Below, piece by piece: positions 10,147-20,917 of a stretch of DNA of 64,000 bases (within the stretch, counting starts at the first letter, position 1; the number at the start of each line of letters is the position of its first letter). Location of the stretch: NCBI RefSeq assembly GCF_000027125.1, contig NC_017626.1; one strand, 5' to 3'. Source of the DNA: Escherichia coli 042. GTDB lineage: Bacteria; Pseudomonadota; Gammaproteobacteria; Enterobacterales; Enterobacteriaceae. Both the position numbers and the translations under genes were made by a program. The notes beneath the pieces are model-generated. The model saw nothing but the letters and a program-made list of their open reading frames with translations. It was not told the DNA's origin and did not search any database.

Positions 10147-12534
10147 TTATCCAATACGTGCTCGTGCGCGTTCCTGTTCACGGATCTGCGCCTGAATTTG
10201 TGTATAAAGCTGCGCCTGTTCATTATCGCGATCGGTCGCGGTCACGACCAGTGCGTAAGGCTCCTGCTCGCTGCTGAATGCTTCGCCCCAGTCTCTGTCC
10301 TGACGGGTAACAACAATAAACCATTTTTCATCCGGGTTACGCTGGCGAAAAGTCCAAATCGACGACTGTACCGTCCCGCGTTCCCGCTGTTGGGCTGATA
10401 CAACACGGTTAGTCTGGGCATCATCGGAGCGGGTTTCCGTCTCACTCTGCGTCTGGTGATTAAAACTGGCCTGCACTTCATCCAGCGAGCGGCCCTTAAC
10501 CAGCCGGAAACCGATCCGTGTGGCAGTATAATCCAGCCGGGTGGTACGCACGGCGGGTGAATATGCCAGCGTAACGCGGACTTCACGGGTTGCACGCTGC
10601 GATCGTAAAAAAGAAGCCGGGAAGGGCAGTTCAAAAAATTGGTGCGCGTTATTTTCTATCTGCTCTTCACATCGCATGACCACCACATTTTCAGAAGAAC
10701 GATATAACGCATCTTCATCAATGATGCCGTAGCCTGTCACGTCGCGCTCAATCTCCCGGTTTCTCGTTGCAGGCGCATTTCTATAGCTTTCTCTCATGGC
10801 CTGCGGAAAAGCCTGCGTCATCTCCTGAGAAACAGAAGCATGATTGACCAGCATTGCCCGCAGCATATTGGCAGACATTTCCGGGTATTCATTTAGCAGT
10901 CGACCCGCCAGATGTGTGATATACGGCGCGGCAAAGCTGGTGCCGCTGAGTTCTTTAAACAGCGTATTACCCTGAAACTGGTGATGGCAGCTTAATACGC
11001 CCAGACCGCGCATATGTGCCTGCCATTGCCCTTGCCGAACGTTGGAAGCGACATTGCCACCGTGCGCTACAACGTCAGGTTTAAACGCGCCTTTTACCGA
11101 CGGGCCGTGTCGGGTAAAAGGCGACGGTTGGTTTTCCGTTGCCGGGCTGAGATGCTGAATATCGCCAGGCCTACGCTGCGCATCCAACGTTGCGTTATGT
11201 CTGGCGACGCTGCCCACTGTCAGTACGTTCAGCGCCGGAGCCGGATCGATGATTACGCTGTCCTCATGCAACAGGTAGTCAGGATATTCATCCCGCCAGC
11301 TATTTTGCGGCACCGGAGGATCGTCGCTGCCTGCGAAATTCCCCGCAGAGACGACAAACAGTACATTATATTGCCGCGCCAGCGTATCTAACAGATACGC
11401 CATACCGCGAATATGTTTGCCGTCATAGGGCGCATTAGCATTCCCCAGCGACAGATTGAAAATGCGGCAACCGAGATCGGTAAAATACGCGACGGCGGCT
11501 GTTAGTGTGCTTTCAATCGTTTCGGCATTGAATTCAGCCCGCTCGTTCAGTACTTTCCCGTTATACAGCCATAGCTGCGGCTGCCAGAAATTGCTCTGGT
11601 TACAGGCTTCAACGTCGCCATACAGAGCAATACTCGCTACGGCGGTGCCATGCCCCTCTTGATCAAACGCATCCTGATTGGGAATAAAGCTGGCGCTTTC
11701 AGCAATGGCGGCACTTAACAGAGGGTGATTGGTGTTGATGCCGCTATCCAGAATACAGACTCTGGCCGCATTTACCGCAGGCGAAATCAGATGCTCTGGA
11801 AGTGTATTGATGTCCCGGTTAATTTGTTGATAGCTAATGCCGCTGGACGGTGGCAAATCAACCAACCTGACGTCCCGATGCGCTAACAGGTATTCTGCTT
11901 GCGCGAGCGAAACCTCTATCCGGTACATCAACAGGCTGTCCAGATTGACTTTATCCCGCCAGAGAATCCCCTGCTCTCTGAGCCAATTTTCAAAACGGGT
12001 ATACAGGTCGATACGTCTGGGGTGATGCGCCACATCGACTGGCCAGAGCTCCACATCCAGATTAAAGCGTTCCGCTACAGGAAAACCATAGCGCCGGAGT
12101 GCCCAGCTTTTACGATCTTCCGCCGACCAGCCGTCAATGCCGTCAAGCGCTTCGAGAATATTCCTGTAGGTTAGGTCCGTACGGGGAAGCCCCAGTTGCG
12201 CCAGATGGGTTTCGAAGGTTGTCAGACCCTGCTCATTAGTGAAAACGATACAGACCTGTTTACCTTCCTGACTGATGAACTCCACGCCGTGATGTATCAA
12301 TGCTGAAAAATTCATTGTGCCGCTGTAGTTCAGCTTGAGGATATAGCGCCCGTCATCGGCGCTGCCGGGTACTTGTGCCAGCGTTGGGCGCAAGGTATGG
12401 AGTTGCGTCAACAGCATTTGCCCGTGCTGGCGTAAATCGCCCCTGCGAATACGGGGCATATTGACTCTGCGGGTCCGTCGGTCGTTTTGAAGTGGTGCTT
12501 TGGTAATCGTTAGATGCTGATAATTCGCCGTCAT
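10147..12534 (-). CDS. Subtilisin-like S8 serine peptidase with ~250-aa N-terminal extension (IetS-like)
   Basis: 795 aa; catalytic D (VCILDSGIN), H (HGTAVASIA), S (GTSFAAPYITH); starts 9 nt after the ATPase stop. Confidence 0.8.
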   Translation of the reverse strand: MTANYQHLTITKAPLQNDRRTRRVNMPRIRRGDLRQHGQMLLTQLHTLRPTLAQVPGSADDGRYILKLNYSGTMNFSALIHHGVEFISQEGKQVCIVFTNEQGLTTFETHLAQLGLPRTDLTYRNILEALDGIDGWSAEDRKSWALRRYGFPVAERFNLDVELWPVDVAHHPRRIDLYTRFENWLREQGILWRDKVNLDSLLMYRIEVSLAQAEYLLAHRDVRLVDLPPSSGISYQQINRDINTLPEHLISPAVNAARVCILDSGINTNHPLLSAAIAESASFIPNQDAFDQEGHGTAVASIALYGDVEACNQSNFWQPQLWLYNGKVLNERAEFNAETIESTLTAAVAYFTDLGCRIFNLSLGNANAPYDGKHIRGMAYLLDTLARQYNVLFVVSAGNFAGSDDPPVPQNSWRDEYPDYLLHEDSVIIDPAPALNVLTVGSVARHNATLDAQRRPGDIQHLSPATENQPSPFTRHGPSVKGAFKPDVVAHGGNVASNVRQGQWQAHMRGLGVLSCHHQFQGNTLFKELSGTSFAAPYITHLAGRLLNEYPEMSANMLRAMLVNHASVSQEMTQAFPQAMRESYRNAPATRNREIERDVTGYGIIDEDALYRSSENVVVMRCEEQIENNAHQFFELPFPASFLRSQRATREVRVTLAYSPAVRTTRLDYTATRIGFRLVKGRSLDEVQASFNHQTQSETETRSDDAQTNRVVSAQQRERGTVQSSIWTFRQRNPDEKWFIVVTRQDRDWGEAFSSEQEPYALVVTATDRDNEQAQLYTQIQAQIREQERARARIG

Positions 12535-12543
12535 GGCAGTCCC

Positions 12544-13524
12544 TTATCGGTGGGTTCTGGCGTTTTCTCGCTGAGTTGCGTTTTTTAAATCTTTTAGCGT
12601 CAGGAATTCCTGATGACGCAGGATCATATGCTTGGTTGCCCGACGGACAATGCGCTCAATATCTGCACCGCTTTTCCCGAGCAGCAGGGATAATAGCTCG
12701 CTATCGTCCAGCTCAAACTGACGGCGGGTGCCGCGTAATTTTAACGCCAACAGCTCACGTAACTGCGCCTGATCCGGCAACGGAAATTCAATCACTTCAT
12801 CAAATCGACGCCAGATGGCGCTGTCCAGAATGTGTTCATGGTTAGTGGCCGCCAGAATCAGGCTTTTACCCTGATAAGCATCCATCATTTGTAAAACGGC
12901 ATTGACGACCCGGCGTAATTCACCGTGTTCGCCGCTGTCGCCACGCTCTTTTCCTATGGCATCAAACTCATCGAACAACACCACCATTGGGTGCTCTGCA
13001 ATAAAATCGAAAATTTTACGCAGATTGGCGGCGGTTTCTCCCAAAAACGAAGACACCAGTACGTCGAGGCGGACAATTGCCAGCGGCATGTCCAGTTCAA
13101 AAGCGATAACCTCTGCTGTCAGCGTTTTACCGCAGCCCGGCGGTCCGAAAAACATGATCTTACTGGCTGCTTTCATCCCGTAGCTATGCAATACATCGCT
13201 ACGCCGGTGCTCTTCAAGGAGTTCATCAATCACTGTAGCGCTGGTCGCCGGGAGGATCATTTCATCAAGGCTGCGCTGTGGCTGCCGGAGATCCAGCAAC
13301 GGCAGGCCCCTTTCTTTATCTATCGGTGCTTGAGGAAGCGCAGGCGAGCGCGAAGCCTGAACAAGACGATCGCCGTAAAGAATATGCTCCAGATCGTTAG
13401 CCAGAAGGTGGTGCTGTTTCTGACGTTCCTCATCAATAATGGCTTCCGAAACACGACGGAAAGTAGCGGTATCACCCGTTGCGCCCGCTTTTATTAGTTG
13501 CCTTAATATCTTACCGTTAGCCAT
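12544..13524 (-). CDS. AAA+ ATPase (IetA-like)
   Basis: Walker A GPPGCGKT, Walker B VVLFDEFD, sensor region LILAATN; ATG at 13524 has an AGGAG RBS (ORF track uses an upstream GTG at 13548). Confidence 0.8.
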   Translation of the reverse strand: MANGKILRQLIKAGATGDTATFRRVSEAIIDEERQKQHHLLANDLEHILYGDRLVQASRSPALPQAPIDKERGLPLLDLRQPQRSLDEMILPATSATVIDELLEEHRRSDVLHSYGMKAASKIMFFGPPGCGKTLTAEVIAFELDMPLAIVRLDVLVSSFLGETAANLRKIFDFIAEHPMVVLFDEFDAIGKERGDSGEHGELRRVVNAVLQMMDAYQGKSLILAATNHEHILDSAIWRRFDEVIEFPLPDQAQLRELLALKLRGTRRQFELDDSELLSLLLGKSGADIERIVRRATKHMILRHQEFLTLKDLKNATQRENARTHR

Positions 13525-13549: not shown

Positions 13550-16416
13550 TCATGCGGAAGGTGAACTCAACGTCCAGCTCACCGCGAATAATTGACGGGA
13601 CGTTATTTCCGTCGCCAGCTTTTGCTCGACCTCTTCCAGCAGACGGTCCTCTTCCTGCTCGATTTTTTTCTTTTCATCATGATACTGCAACATGATGCTA
13701 TCCCGCTCGCGTTCCAGCACCTTTAATGCGCGCTTGGCTTCCATTTTCTCTTTTAGAGAAGGAAGCTGACGGGCGGCTTTACGCGCCTCTTTAATTTCTG
13801 CATCTAACTGTTTGATACGTAAGTCCAGCGCGATACGTCGATCTTCTGACCAGCGTTCAAGTTTTTCTACTTCTTCATTGTAATAAAGTTCGTTATCGCG
13901 TTCGACCTGTTGGATAAAAGAATGCCGTAAAACCTCACATTGTGTTGTTAACGCAGGCAGCAAAGGCTGTTCTTCGACAGATGTTATCTCTGATAATGGC
14001 AGGCGAAGCAGACGGGATACGGTTTCCTCTGCCAGCACTTCGCCATTTTCTGTAACAGCGACGGTCAATAGTTTCTCTCGCTGTTGCTCCTGATTTCCGA
14101 TGCTGACTTTTGCCAGCAACAGCTGTCCCGATTTCCCGCAGAACAGTTTAACATCGGCCAGTTGTCCGCTTCTGGGTTGGTAGATGAAATGGAGCTTCTG
14201 GCAAACTGGGGATGTGGAAAGGCTTGCCCCTTCATGCAGGGCAGCATCAATCAGTTGCTTCCCATATCCCTGGCTGGGCCGGAAGAATTCGGCATCTTTT
14301 TCATCCGCAATGGGCCAGTTGACGTCAAAATACTTTCCTCTGGAACGAAAACCCGTCTCAGAACGTTGAAAATCGCTCTCGTCGCTCAGAAACATTTCCG
14401 CCAGCAGCAACAGATTTTCCTGGTAATCGTTTAACTGCGCGAGGGTGGTTGTACGTCGGGTTTTCAGATTGCGGACCACATCAACGTCAAAATGCTCGAA
14501 TAATGAACGCCGGGTTTCATTCTCCCGATTTTCCAGTTGATCTTTGAGTTCATCCTGCAGCTGATTAAATTCCTGTTCAATTTGTTCATCGGAGCGGCAG
14601 TGCTGGTATATCTCATGAATACGTCGTTCAATATCAACACCTGATTCGATCGACCCCAGAATGTCATCGGATGCGCCAAACACCCCTTCAAAAAGCTGGA
14701 ACTTCTGGCTCAATAATTCAAACACGCGCTGATCGGCACGGTTGCCTTTATTAATAAAATTAACCACCACGACATCGTGTTTTTGTCCATAGCGGTGAAC
14801 ACGCCCGATACGTTGCTCCACGCGCTGCGGATTCCACGGTAAATCATAATTGATTAACAGCGAACAAAACTGGAGGTTGATACCTTCTGCGCCCGCTTCA
14901 GTACAAATCATCAGGGTGCCTTCGTCCCTGAATTTTTCAACCAGCGCTGCCTTCATATCCGCCGTACTCGAACCGGAAACCCGGCCAGAGTTCTGATGTT
15001 TCTCCAGCCAGTCGCTGTAAATCTTCTTCGACACCGCATCGCTATTGCTGCCATTGAGCAGAACCACTTCTCCCTCGTAGCCACTTTCTGACAACAGTTG
15101 CGCCAGCCAGGTCTGGGTGCGTACGGACTCGGTAAAAATGACCGCCTTACGTAATCCGCCCAGTTCAGCCGTAAAGGTAAAGGCCCGATCGAGAACGCGT
15201 AACAGTGCTTCGGCCTTGGCGTTTTTGGTAATCGATGCCGCTAAAGTCTTATAATTTTTTAACTGGTCAATTTCGGCCTGTAGCGCCTGAGGATCGATGG
15301 TATCTTCGTCATCAATGCCTTCTTCATCGCTGTAATCGTCGTAATTTTCATAATCCGTCAGCGCATCCAGCACCGGCATTTTACTTTCAAGACGGTGGAT
15401 CATCGTTTCCAGCGTTCCCTGGATCGCTGTAGACGATGAGGCCAGAATTTTACGAATGACTAACGTTACTAGGTGACGCGCGCCGCTTTTGATCGCCAGT
15501 AGATCGTCCCGCTGCAAATAAGAGGAAACCTGTTTATAGAGCACTTCTTCGTCTTCCGTCGGACGAAAGTCTTCGGTTATTGAATGGCGTCGGGTAAAAC
15601 TGATCCCGCCTTCCTGCTGAACCTGTCGACGAAGCGTTCGATTACAGATTTTATTCAGACGAACCCTTAATAATGCCAGTTCTGCATCGTCAATATTCTG
15701 TCGGGAATAACGGGCCTTGAACGAAGCAAGGTCGCCGAAAAAATGAGGATCAATCACGGAAATCAGGCCGTAAAGCTCAAGAATACTGTTTTGTAGCGGC
15801 GTGGCGGAAAGCAGTATTTTTTTTCTGCCGGACAGTGCGCCACTGAGTTTTTTGGCTGTTTTAGCGCCATCGTTCTTGTAGATATTACGCAGTTTATGCG
15901 CCTCATCCATGACGACCAGATCCCACGGGATTCGTGCCAGCTCGTGCTCTTTACGGGCAGCGAATTCGTATGAACAAATGCAGATCGCCGCTTTCCCGGT
16001 TGCATTTTCAATATCAAAGGGATTATCGCTCCCCTCTTTAACCATTTGATTGAAGATCTTCGCTTCAATAATTTGTGAAGGCAGCGAAAATTTCTCTTCC
16101 AGCTCCTGGCTCCACTGCTTGCGTAGCGTTGCGGGTGCAATCAGCAACAGTTTTCGGCGGCGTTCAGCCCATTTTGCGCCAAAATCAGGCTGGCCTCAAT
16201 AGTTTTCCCCAGTCCCACTTCATCGGCCAGGATCACGCCATTCGACAGGGGAGATGCCAGCGCAAACATCGCAGCCTCTACCTGATGAGGATTCATATCA
16301 ACCCGTGCGCTGGCAATAGTTTGCGTCAGCGAGTCCTCGGCTTTGCCGCTTAACGTCAACCAGTGGGCCAGATAACTACGTTGGTGATCTGAATACATTT
16401 TCATACCTTTGTGCAA
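13550..16416 (-). pseudogene. SNF2-family helicase with ~450-aa coiled-coil-rich C-terminal extension, frameshifted near the N-terminus in this sequence
   Basis: Motif I ILADEVGLGKTIEA in the 16141..16416 piece; motif II VMDEAHKLRN and LLSATPLQN in the 13550..16147 piece. One extra nucleotide in the A4 or T4 run at plus 16172-16184 restores a continuous ~955-aa frame (...LILAQKWAERRRKLLLIAPATLRKQW...). Confidence 0.75.
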
Positions 16417-16698
16417 AGAGGGGGAGGGGAGCGCGACCGTATTTTACTGATATATGAACCGGGTTGCTAATCTGGAAGATGGCTCGCATTACATCCCCTT
16501 GTCGTTCACCGGGCTTCGCGGTCTCTTTTCCTCGCGTCTGCAAAATCAGGCGCCGGGCTTGACCTCCTGAACACTCCTTAGTGACGACACAATGGCGCGC
16601 TCGCGCCTTTTTTGTGCCGGTGCTCGGCTACACCTCAATGGCGGACCGGGCGGGGGCGTCGCAAGGCGCGCTGGATGGACTGTTCTGAGGAGGCAGGA

Positions 16699-18131: not shown

Positions 18132-18271
18132 AGCCTCCCTGCTCCAGAGATAATATAAAGGGGGGGCTCAACAGATTGATCTTTACGTCGCTTACACTGC
18201 AAATATTCAGAAATGAGTCTATGCATTTCACCAGTAAAATCAGCCATCAGAGAGGGGGTAATGACTCCAAC

Positions 18272-18649
18272 TTATTGATAGTGTTTTATGTTCAGATAAT
18301 GCCCGATGACTTTGTCATGCAGCTCCACCGATTTTGAGAACGACAGCGACTTCCGTCCCAGCCGTGCCAGGTGCTGCCTCAGATTCAGGTTATGCCGCTC
18401 AATTCGCTGCGTATATCGCTTGCTGATTACGTGCAGCTTTCCCTTCAGGCGGGATTCATACAGCGGCCAGTCATCCGTCATCCATATCACCACGTCAAAG
18501 GGTGACAGCAGGCTCATAAGACGCCCCAGCGTCGCCATAGTGCGTTCACCGAATACGTGCGCAACAACCGTCTTCCGGAGCCTGTCATACGCGTAAAACA
18601 GCCAGCGCTGGCGCGATTTAGCCCCGACATAGCCCCACTGTTCGTCCAT
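18272..18649 (-). CDS. insB: IS1 InsB
   Basis: [48 protein letters not shown]... Confidence 0.9.
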
Positions 18650-18693
18650 TTCCGCGCAGACGATGACGTCACTGCCCGGCTGTATGCGCGAGG

Positions 18694-18969
18694 TTACCGA
18701 CTGCGGCCTGAGTTTTTTAAGTGACGTAAAATCGTGTTGAGGCCAACGCCCATAATGCGGGCAGTTGCCCGGCAGCCAACGCCATTCATGGCCATATCAA
18801 TGATTTTCTGGTGCGTACCGGGTTGAGAAGCGGTGTAAGTGAACTGCAGTTGCCATGTTTTACGGCAGTGAGAGCAGAGATAGCGCTGATGTCCGGCGGT
18901 GCTTTTGCCGTTACGCACCACCCCGTCAGTAGCTGAACAGGAGGGACAGCTGATAGAAACAGAAGCCAC
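18694..18969 (-). CDS. insA: IS1 InsA
   Basis: [43 protein letters not shown]... Confidence 0.9.
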
Positions 18970-19354
18970 TGGAGCACCTCAAAAACACCATCATACACTA
19001 AATCAGTAAGTTGGCAGCATCACCTGTTCCCAAAATTTTATTTATCTTCATCACTTACAGAGAATGCTCAACATTTGCTAGTCTTTTCCTGTCCTGGTAT
19101 CCAAAGTCTCCTCCCAAATATCCTGGATACTAGCTTAGACAAAATGAGATTATATTTATGGTAAATTATATCATAACAGCTTTTGTTAAGGATGCTGTGT
19201 AAGATAAAATATATGGGTTAGAGGCAGATTCTTTTGCAATCAGGAAGAAGATAATCACTGATGTTATCGGATATGTAGCAGTATTCGTTATAGCTATTTA
19301 GAGAAATTTGTGCCACAATTTATTATAGAGTTTAAAGAAAAATATATTGAAAAT

Positions 19355-19381
19355 AAAATCCGGGCTATTGCCCGGATTTTA
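19355..19381 (-). terminator. Rho-independent terminator downstream of the integrase gene
   Basis: Hairpin ATCCGGGC-TATT-GCCCGGAT followed by a T-run on the minus strand, immediately after the integrase stop. Confidence 0.6.
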
Positions 19382-20644
19382 TTATTTTAATGGGTTATTA
19401 ATCTTTGCATATTCAAATGGACTGATAAATTTTTCTCTGTTTGCATCCAGAAAATCGGCCCACCACTGTAGCATCAGTCGCCGTTCTTCCAGATGTTCTG
19501 CTTTATGAATGTAAGCAGCACGTACACCGTTACGTTCCTGATGGCTCATCTGACGTTCCACAGCATCGCGGGACCACAAACCTGATTCAATCAATGCACT
19601 GCACGCCATCGCCCGGAATCCATGGCCACAGACTTCCTGGGTTGTGTCATACCCCATCACCCTCAGGGCTTTATTTACAGTATTTTCACTGATTGGTTTA
19701 CGCGGGTCATGTGCACCCGTAAATATCAGACCATTTTCACCTGCCCATGTCTGAAGTTCTGTCAGTATGGCTACAGCCTGTTTACTGAGTGGCACAAGAT
19801 GTGGTGTCCGCATCTTGGAGCCCCGGTGTGAGAATTTTACGCCAGGCAGAGGTTCGCGTTCGGCTGGAATAGTCCACATGGCATTGTCAATATCAATTTC
19901 AGACCAGCGGGCATATCTGAGTTCACTGGAACGAATAAAAACCAGTAAATTCAGCATAACGGCAAGCCGGGTGACAGGCTGGCCTTTATAACCGTCAATA
20001 CGCGACAGAAGTTCAGGCAGGCGTGAAAGATTCAGAGCGGGGCGATGCTGGCGTTTTACCGTGGTCAATGCACCAGCCATATCCAGAGCCGGGTTATATC
20101 TGATGATGCCAGACTGTACGGCGTAACGCATTACAGCAGATATTCTTTGCTGCAGACGACTGGCGATTTCATAAATTTGTTTTGCTTCTGCAGCACGAAC
20201 AGGGATAAGCAGGTCCGGGGTATTGAGTGTTGTGATATCCCGGTTGCCGATAAAGGGGAAAACGTGTGTCTCGAGGCTTTTGAGTACTTTATCGCTGTGT
20301 GATTGTGCCCATTGTTTATTACTGGCATGCCAGCGTCGTGCAATATGTTCAAAAGAGAGCTGTAAATCAGGGACTACTTTTTTAACTCTTTTCTGTTCGC
20401 AAGGGTCAATCCCCTCTGAAATCAGTTTTCGGGCCTCATCCCGTTTTGTACGAGCTTCGGAGAGAGAAACTTCTGGATACACACCAAGTGCCAGAGTCTT
20501 CTCCTTACCCAGAATACGATAACGGAGACGCCAGTAACGGGAACCATTAGGATGTACCAGCAGGAACATGCCAGCCCCGTCAGTGAGTTTATAAGCCTTG
20601 TCAGTAGGCTTTGCTGCCCGGATTTTTGCGTCAGTCAGTGCCAT
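19382..20644 (-). CDS. int: P4-family tyrosine integrase
   Basis: 420 aa, MALTDAKIRAAKPTDKAYKLTDGAGMFLLVHPNGSRYWRLRYR...; C-terminal catalytic region HGFRAMA...RAAYIH; located ~200 bp from the 3' end of tRNA-Phe. Confidence 0.9.
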   Translation of the reverse strand: MALTDAKIRAAKPTDKAYKLTDGAGMFLLVHPNGSRYWRLRYRILGKEKTLALGVYPEVSLSEARTKRDEARKLISEGIDPCEQKRVKKVVPDLQLSFEHIARRWHASNKQWAQSHSDKVLKSLETHVFPFIGNRDITTLNTPDLLIPVRAAEAKQIYEIASRLQQRISAVMRYAVQSGIIRYNPALDMAGALTTVKRQHRPALNLSRLPELLSRIDGYKGQPVTRLAVMLNLLVFIRSSELRYARWSEIDIDNAMWTIPAEREPLPGVKFSHRGSKMRTPHLVPLSKQAVAILTELQTWAGENGLIFTGAHDPRKPISENTVNKALRVMGYDTTQEVCGHGFRAMACSALIESGLWSRDAVERQMSHQERNGVRAAYIHKAEHLEERRLMLQWWADFLDANREKFISPFEYAKINNPLK

Positions 20645-20841
20645 AGTTCAGCCTTCTGAATGCGTTAAAGAGGGTACAAATTCTGTCGAACTGGGGTATG
20701 CCCACAATTATACCCACACAATGAGGTTGATGTGGGGGGAATCTGGTTGAGTTCGGTAGAATTGATTTGGAGGCAGGACGCTTAAATCGTGGCGTCCTGG
20801 AATGAAAAACGGACCTCCGTGGAGGTCCGTTGATATGAATT

Positions 20842-20917
20842 TGGTGCCCGGACTCGGAATCGAACCAAGGACACGGGGATTTTCAATCCCCTGCTCTACC
20901 GACTGAGCTATCCGGGC
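20842..20917 (-). tRNA. pheU: tRNA-Phe (GAA)
   Basis: Exact 76-nt tRNA-Phe as reverse complement (GCCCGGATAGCTCAGTCGGTAGAGCAGGGGATTGAAAATCCCCGTGTCCTTGGTTCGATTCCGAGTCCGGGCACCA); followed by yjdC-dsbD-cutA as at K-12 pheU. Confidence 0.95.

Follow-up and report, generated by a model that had tools for sequence, protein, structure and literature searches.

We analyzed a stretch of 64,000 nucleotides (nt) from Escherichia coli 042 (contig NC_017626.1), referred to below as the window, in which two adjacent open reading frames (ORFs) on the minus strand, one of 85 or 91 codons depending on the start and one of 865 codons, are a single SNF2-family helicase gene broken by the loss of one nucleotide. 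The gene is identified, from its catalytic residues and its context, as ietH of the published ietHAS system, a known defence gene and nothing new, and its frameshift is a genuine, clonally inherited and lineage-specific allele. Taken as a whole, the evidence is best explained if ietH here is a true pseudogene in a recently disabled defence operon, which we consider very probable. The gene and its break comprise the following features, given in window coordinates.

13550-16398, minus strand: ietH as a whole, SNF2 helicase gene; DrmD model PDLC02619 at 3.4e-201 over residues 26-662 only, and NF038318 at 662 bits, under its cut-off of 950
16141..16398, minus strand: ietH 5' fragment, of 85 codons if read from the ATG at 16398 and of 91 if read from the TTG at 16416, from the ORF listing, the sequence and the alignment
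16172..16175, minus strand: frameshift site, A4 here, where each of the 65 complete E. coli genomes with a near-identical copy has A5, from a probe search and alignment
13550..16147, minus strand: ietH 3' fragment, the 865-codon ORF, in which the DEAH box (whose aspartate is D165 in the intact protein) and motifs III-VI are followed by a family-specific C-terminal module
16441..16470, minus strand: promoter-like site (TTAGCA-18-TAAAAT) just upstream of ietH, a consensus match only, from a scan that as a whole was not above chance

The 5' ORF extends from 16416 to 16141 and carries motif I, the Walker A segment (GLGKT, with K65); its product ends in ...ILADEVGLGKTIEASLILAQNGLNAAENCC, with the last 10 codons out of frame and followed by TGA. 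The 3' ORF (16147 to 13550, 865 amino acids, aa) is in another frame, begins with MLIAPATLRKQW... in short form, or MLIAPATLRKQWSQEL as read in the ORF listing and the raw sequence, and contains the DEAH box and the later helicase motifs (III-VI). Alignment to E. coli 55989 set GCGCAAAAATGGG in the reference against GCGCAAAATGGG in the window, showing that one A was lost from an A5 run after codon 75, which leaves A4 at 16172-16175, and that the cut replaces two invariant residues, W77 and E79, by out-of-frame residues. The intact product is 949 aa as annotated (WP_000286652.1), or ~955 aa from the TTG at 16416. A preliminary description of this DNA, made from the sequence alone, had proposed that an SNF2 helicase gene opening an operon was split by a single-base loss in short runs at 16172-16184, that the restored frame would give ~955 aa and that the Walker A segment was thereby removed from the main ORF; all of these points were borne out, the length for the TTG start. 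There is no canonical slippery heptamer in the sequence around the break, read directly, nor was a Shine-Dalgarno-like sequence found upstream of the TTG at 16147 or of the next in-frame ATGs of the 3' ORF.

Assignment of the protein to the SNF2 family rests on Pfam matches to SNF2-rel_dom (residues 43-308, 9e-38) and Helicase_C (residues 455-538), together with the Walker A motif and DEAH box, as the preliminary description had it. Going beyond that description, the helicase could be equated with published IetH, the genes downstream were recognized as those for IetA and IetS followed by a type III mod-res pair, and mod was found to be frameshifted as well. The ietHAS system (Liu-DS4) consists of ietAS plus an SNF2 helicase resembling DrmD, IetH, and was described in E. 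coli, where it occurs in >1.5% of genomes and where the IetH substitutions K65A and D165A abolished protection against T7 (Liu et al., Nucleic Acids Res 2026, PMC13069673). In the intact protein the Walker A lysine and the DEAH aspartate are K65 and D165, the same numbering as the mutated residues, and intact ietH was present in 73 of 5426 complete E. coli genomes, similar to the published prevalence; the two together identify the gene as ietH. Consistent with this, the helicase gene lies directly upstream of, and co-oriented with, genes for the AAA+ ATPase IetA and the S8 protease IetS. It opens a series of closely spaced genes that share one direction, all on the minus strand, in the order ietH-ietA-ietS-mod-res (PADLOC and NCBIfam profiles), with intergenic gaps of ~25 nt (ietH-ietA, with the RefSeq ietA start), 9 nt (ietA-ietS), 9 nt and 2 nt. 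The whole operon is intact in O104:H4, in 55989 and in about 1.3% of complete E. coli genomes. The copy in the window differs from the published system in that it is frameshifted and in that the operon runs on into mod and res; the ietHAS paper never mentions methyltransferase or type III genes and treats the helicase as a module gained by ietAS (PMC13069673), whereas in other taxa the helicase keeps Mod and Res without IetAS. The remaining genes of the operon are as follows.

12544..13524, minus strand: ietA, an intact gene for an AAA+ ATPase of 326 aa, with no difference from the copy in 55989; PADLOC IetA, 3.9e-105
10147..12534, minus strand: ietS, S8 subtilase, 795 aa, intact; PADLOC IetS, 1202 bits
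8510-10137, minus strand: type III mod, whole gene span; MTase_III PDLC03636, 9.4e-292
9394..10137, minus strand: mod 5' fragment, 247 codons
9414..9416 (about 9415), minus strand: second frameshift, GTTGGCG in relatives versus GTTGCG here, one G lost from GG
8510..9418, minus strand: mod 3' fragment, an ORF of 302 codons (241 aa according to gene callers)
5637..8507, minus strand: type III res-like helicase/endonuclease gene, 956 aa, intact; PADLOC REase_III PDLC03648, 2119 bits

The mod and res genes are adjacent, as in systems of type III restriction-modification (R-M), and the Mod and Res models were matched end to end. In public annotation the pieces of the broken genes appear as separate "hypothetical", "SNF2-related" and "DNA methyltransferase" proteins. 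The substitution D512G in IetS relative to 55989 is a lineage variant that is also found in strain BR1220.

The reality of the break was assessed from relatives and from independent assemblies. A 200-nt probe over the ietH site, searched in complete E. coli genomes, found 65 near-identical copies, all 99.5% identical over 201 nt, and all 65 had the A5 run and the 949-aa protein; the mod lesion was in 0 of the 65. The frame across the site is also continuous in the diverged homologues, so that the alignment proposed in the preliminary description favors a single uninterrupted gene. The closest intact island is that of BR1220, whose five-gene operon differs from the window by only two 1-nt deletions and one single-nucleotide polymorphism (SNP). 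Both deletions are taken to be very recent, since the operon otherwise does not differ from intact alleles. The broken allele itself was found repeatedly: the exact 85-aa product is on 91 public contigs and the 865-aa product on 80 (NCBI, ENA and Logan), and the exact fragment proteins overall are on 80-99 public contigs, with accession numbers that are consecutive. Over 11-13 kb, the window is matched at 100% identity by the assembled genome of an isolate (GCA_029362025.1) and by the Logan assembly of ERR2720672; inside the operon, two human metagenome assemblies also match it without a difference and depart from it in insertion sequence (IS) DNA only, and further isolates and runs carry the same split into 85 and 865 codons. 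Every inspected context of the broken allele has both lesions, and no intermediate with ietH or mod alone broken was found among them. There was no signal of relaxed selection after the frameshift, since all SNPs between broken copies are in IS sequence outside the operon.

A sequencing or assembly error, with A5 and an intact gene in the true genome, is one alternative, given that the site is a homopolymer and that the deletion occurs in no complete RefSeq E. coli genome of the collection. We regard it as extremely improbable, because the broken allele is found in identical form in many assemblies that were made independently, from isolates, SRA runs and metagenomes. Moreover, the second deletion is in a GG dinucleotide rather than a long homopolymer, and the absence of indels between the window and strain 118UI across 28 kb of core flank indicates that this assembly is not indel-prone. 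A different doubt concerns identity, namely whether the gene is drmD of a (degenerate) class 1 DISARM system. The top PADLOC and NCBIfam matches are indeed DrmD models, the SNF2 ATPase core is shared, and the operon includes a methyltransferase gene and a second helicase gene. However, NF038318 scored 661.9 bits against a curated cut-off of 950 and covered residues 26-647 only, NF038317 scored 249 bits against 610, the C-terminal module differs from that of class 1 DrmD, and the methyltransferase and second helicase align over their full length with the models for type III Mod and Res. The preliminary description was right that no other DISARM component is present: DrmA, DrmB (DUF1998) and DrmC (PLD) are missing from the window and from 48 related loci, which have type III Mod/Res instead. 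With scores below the curated cut-off and its partners missing, class 1 DISARM was rejected as very unlikely indeed. Hma was rejected too, as HmaA matched the helicase at 1.4e-48, far under the DrmD model, and neither Mod nor Res had an HmaB or HmaC match in PADLOC.

Two further alternatives accept the split and deny that it inactivates the gene. In one, the split is a regulated ON/OFF switch (phase variation) or is bypassed by programmed ribosomal slippage. In other genera, type III mod genes are textbook cases of phase variation, the break is within an A run, and a ribosome that slipped by -1 at any point in the 11 codons ahead of the stop would regain the frame. Yet the tract is only 4-5 nt long, CAA-AAU and GAA-AAC are not slippery heptamers of the form X-XXY-YYZ, and diverged homologues have no break at this point. 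The uniform A5 of the 65 relatives and the A4 of all inspected broken copies, which share the same second lesion, argue for a single clonal event and not for switching, and we consider this alternative very unlikely. Homologues that stop and restart here, which the preliminary description would have taken as evidence against a defect, do exist, but within this one clonal allele only; as none of the diverged homologues compared is split at this point, the arrangement is a pseudogene specific to this lineage rather than a two-ORF design that has been conserved. In the other alternative, the 85-aa P-loop peptide and the 865-aa polypeptide reassemble as an active helicase, which would account for the persistence of the allele in many samples with the remaining gene undamaged. 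An undamaged remainder is explained as well by a very young allele, and the cut, as placed on the structural model described below, would fall inside RecA-like lobe 1 directly after the P-loop helix, with W77 and E79 replaced and a second ORF that has no ribosome-binding site; we therefore give reassembly next to no credence. Rescue through a slippery site or re-initiation was likewise rejected, in view of the missing heptamer and Shine-Dalgarno-like sequence.

As such, we infer loss of function, polarity and decay over regulated switching. Loss of an A from the A5 run detaches the Walker A segment, as an 85-aa peptide, from the rest of IetH, and the 3' ORF, which has no recognizable ribosome-binding site, would yield no more than an ATPase-dead protein, 865 aa long or shorter. 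Since the Walker A and DEAH substitutions K65A and D165A abolish anti-T7 defence in the published system, the ietHAS half of this allele is predicted to be non-functional and its anti-T7 defence lost. Polarity probably lowers transcription of the genes downstream of ietH. The second private 1-nt deletion breaks mod, and because the Res of classical type III systems depends on Mod for target finding, the R-M half should be null as well, with an inert type III system despite an intact res.

Several considerations weigh against this explanation. Induced ietHAS with ATPase-dead IetH was cytotoxic (PMC13069673), which is not easily squared with the viability of a lineage whose ietA and ietS are intact, although polarity from the early stop, low native expression or an antitoxin activity of IetA could reconcile the two. 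Some re-initiation may be possible where the stop codon overlaps the next start (TTGCTGA), and the A4 run can revert to A5 at low frequency. It is also important to note that loss of function in this lineage is something that we infer.

The C-terminal region of the helicase had been described as ~450 aa rich in predicted coiled coil, with domain prediction suggested as a check. Pfam found nothing after residue 540 of the intact protein, and an AlphaFold model built on 63 sequences (pLDDT, the predicted local distance difference test, 87.7; predicted template modelling score, pTM, 0.84) upheld the description in part only. It has two RecA-like lobes with the SNF2 helical insert, followed by a C-terminal region of ~350 aa in which a helical hairpin (604-671) and a very long antiparallel hairpin (815-877 and 882-928) flank an alpha/beta domain of ~130 aa (about 677-810), with terminal strands at 931-945. 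The two long helical hairpins thus agree with the description, whereas the length and the extent of coiled coil had been overstated. The whole model is closest to RapA, the E. coli RNA-polymerase-associated SNF2 ATPase (TM-score up to 0.56), which is the nearest solved structure to the helicase both by sequence and by fold. The C-terminal module alone gave only generic coiled-coil matches in the PDB, and in AFDB50 it matched almost only other helicases, mostly annotated as SNF2 or DEAD/DEAH. The module, as modeled, is therefore two long helical hairpins and an alpha/beta domain without an informative match.

The operon is part of an island, one boundary of which is seen in the window.

18249..20917, minus strand: island boundary, with the tRNA-Phe gene pheU (20842-20917), a tyrosine integrase (19382-20644) and an IS1 insertion (about 18249-19015)

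The island is at pheU here, with a dicD/dsbD flank, and the near-identical island of 55989 and BR1220 is at pheV. Directly after res is a 97-codon ORF (5255-5548, minus strand) that carries the annotation "hypothetical protein" in each of the E. coli copies and had no PADLOC or NCBIfam match. Within positions 1-5200, there is first, at the window's left end, a match to the start of pic, a gene for a serine-protease autotransporter, and then remnants of IS30, IS3 and IS110; relative to BR1220 the window has an extra ~1 kb (about 1414-2430). Three tandem tRNA-Gly(GCC) genes at 50071-50490 are an ordinary core-genome feature.

Homologues of the helicase are single proteins of about 940-950 aa and occur in many phyla, from Enterobacterales to Bacillota, Bacteroidota and Planctomycetota. 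Among the related loci that we compared, 71 carry a full-length family member, and 57 of these have at least 3 kb of downstream sequence. A type III Mod is downstream on the same strand in 48 of the 57. Over all full-length loci with a detected Mod, it is adjacent to the helicase gene in 21, 100-1000 nt away in seven and behind 1-5.8 kb of inserted genes in 29. Across many phyla, 0-3 variable genes separate the helicase gene from mod. A Res-like gene usually follows Mod; our own Res profile found it in 27 of the 45 loci with at least 8 kb downstream, and long-class Res genes that this profile missed match PADLOC REase_III. Mod and Res are of two size classes, about 550-650 and 900-990 aa, or about 1000-1130 and 1060-1130 aa, respectively. 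The genes inserted between helicase and mod are varied defence or candidate defence genes: IetAS (E. coli and Providencia), HEC-01A/B, SLFN/AlbA_2-HATPase, AbiU, SoFic, HEC-06 (GmrSD-like), HerA, PDC-S06, PDC-S13 with an ABC ATPase, PD-Lambda-2_B and Ppl-like. While these genes are swapped, the helicase and Res diverge in step, as seen from their identities to the E. coli 55989 proteins.

Providencia: SNF2 90.5%, Res 90.4%
Aeromonas: SNF2 71.7%, Res 69.4%
Methylobacter: SNF2 66.4%, Res 63.1%
Pseudomonas: SNF2 44.4%, Res 43.1%
Heliorestis: SNF2 43.7%, Res 42.3%

Gene order across these loci suggests that the conserved unit is SNF2-Mod-Res and that IetAS is one occupant of a cargo slot within it, which would extend the published picture. 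We tentatively propose, as a possibility that we hold to be rather unlikely at present, that IetH is not at root a helicase associated with ietAS but belongs, as a conserved third member beside Mod and Res, to an SNF2-Mod-Res (type III-like) system of wide distribution, that abortive-infection cargo, IetAS being one example, is exchanged in a slot that separates the SNF2 gene from mod, and that the helicase couples R-M surveillance to the embedded effector. EcoprrI couples R-M surveillance to an embedded effector, PrrC, in this manner.

Other observations were made on individual loci. Between E. coli (L001, mod at 18565-20193) and Providencia (L090, 15259-16869), the helicase, IetA, IetS and Res are 88-92% identical and Mod 67%; the lower identity of Mod suggests exchange of the target-recognition region. 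In Vibrio metschnikovii (L089, 12585-15795), the helicase gene is separated from res by a tandem pair of Mod genes, of 535 and 537 aa, and by a 252-aa gene. Breaks at other positions, which split mod, res or SNF2 genes, were seen in L007 (14374-16044), L042 (16362-21972), L043, L051 and L083, and family members with split genes include Endozoicomonas, Nitrosomonas and several metagenome-assembled genomes; either operon decay is common or these are assembly errors.

Two sets of published systems resemble this arrangement. EcoR22I, a type III R-M system with a drmD-like SNF2 helicase on a mobile island of E. coli, does not require its SNF2 protein for Ocr-triggered cell death (Silas et al., bioRxiv 10.1101/2023.04.06.535777). 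Likened here by its published description, it too has a DrmD-related SNF2 helicase encoded with a type III mod and res, but it has no IetAS insert and its Res is longer (catalytic D1024 and D1043) than the 956-aa Res in the window, a length that fits the long Mod/Res class of loci L044-L049 and L071. Defence genes embedded in multi-gene systems have been reported for Hma, BREX, DISARM and type I R-M (Payne et al., bioRxiv 10.1101/2024.01.29.577857). Those systems likewise hold co-oriented cargo between genes of a DNA-modification-type system, and the cargo families HEC-01A/B, HEC-06, PDC-S06 and PDC-S13 are common to that study and the slot described here; the host system differs, as SNF2 with type III Mod/Res was outside that study's analysis.

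For the E. coli of the window, the operon is a freshly inactivated copy of a known defence operon, which matters little. The co-divergence of helicase and Res around swapped intervening genes suggests a larger SNF2-type III R-M module, equipped with a cargo slot, to which the three genes tested as ietHAS in 2026 belong, a reading that we regard as a moderately interesting lead. If coupling through the helicase were true, it would explain why IetAS needs IetH and why the system is toxic without IetH ATPase activity, and the loss of both ietH and mod in a lineage whose ietA, ietS and res are intact would reflect genetic coupling and not two independent accidents. If the larger-module reading is right, ietHAS experiments should take in mod and res, and the slot could be mined for new defence genes through "guilt by embedding".

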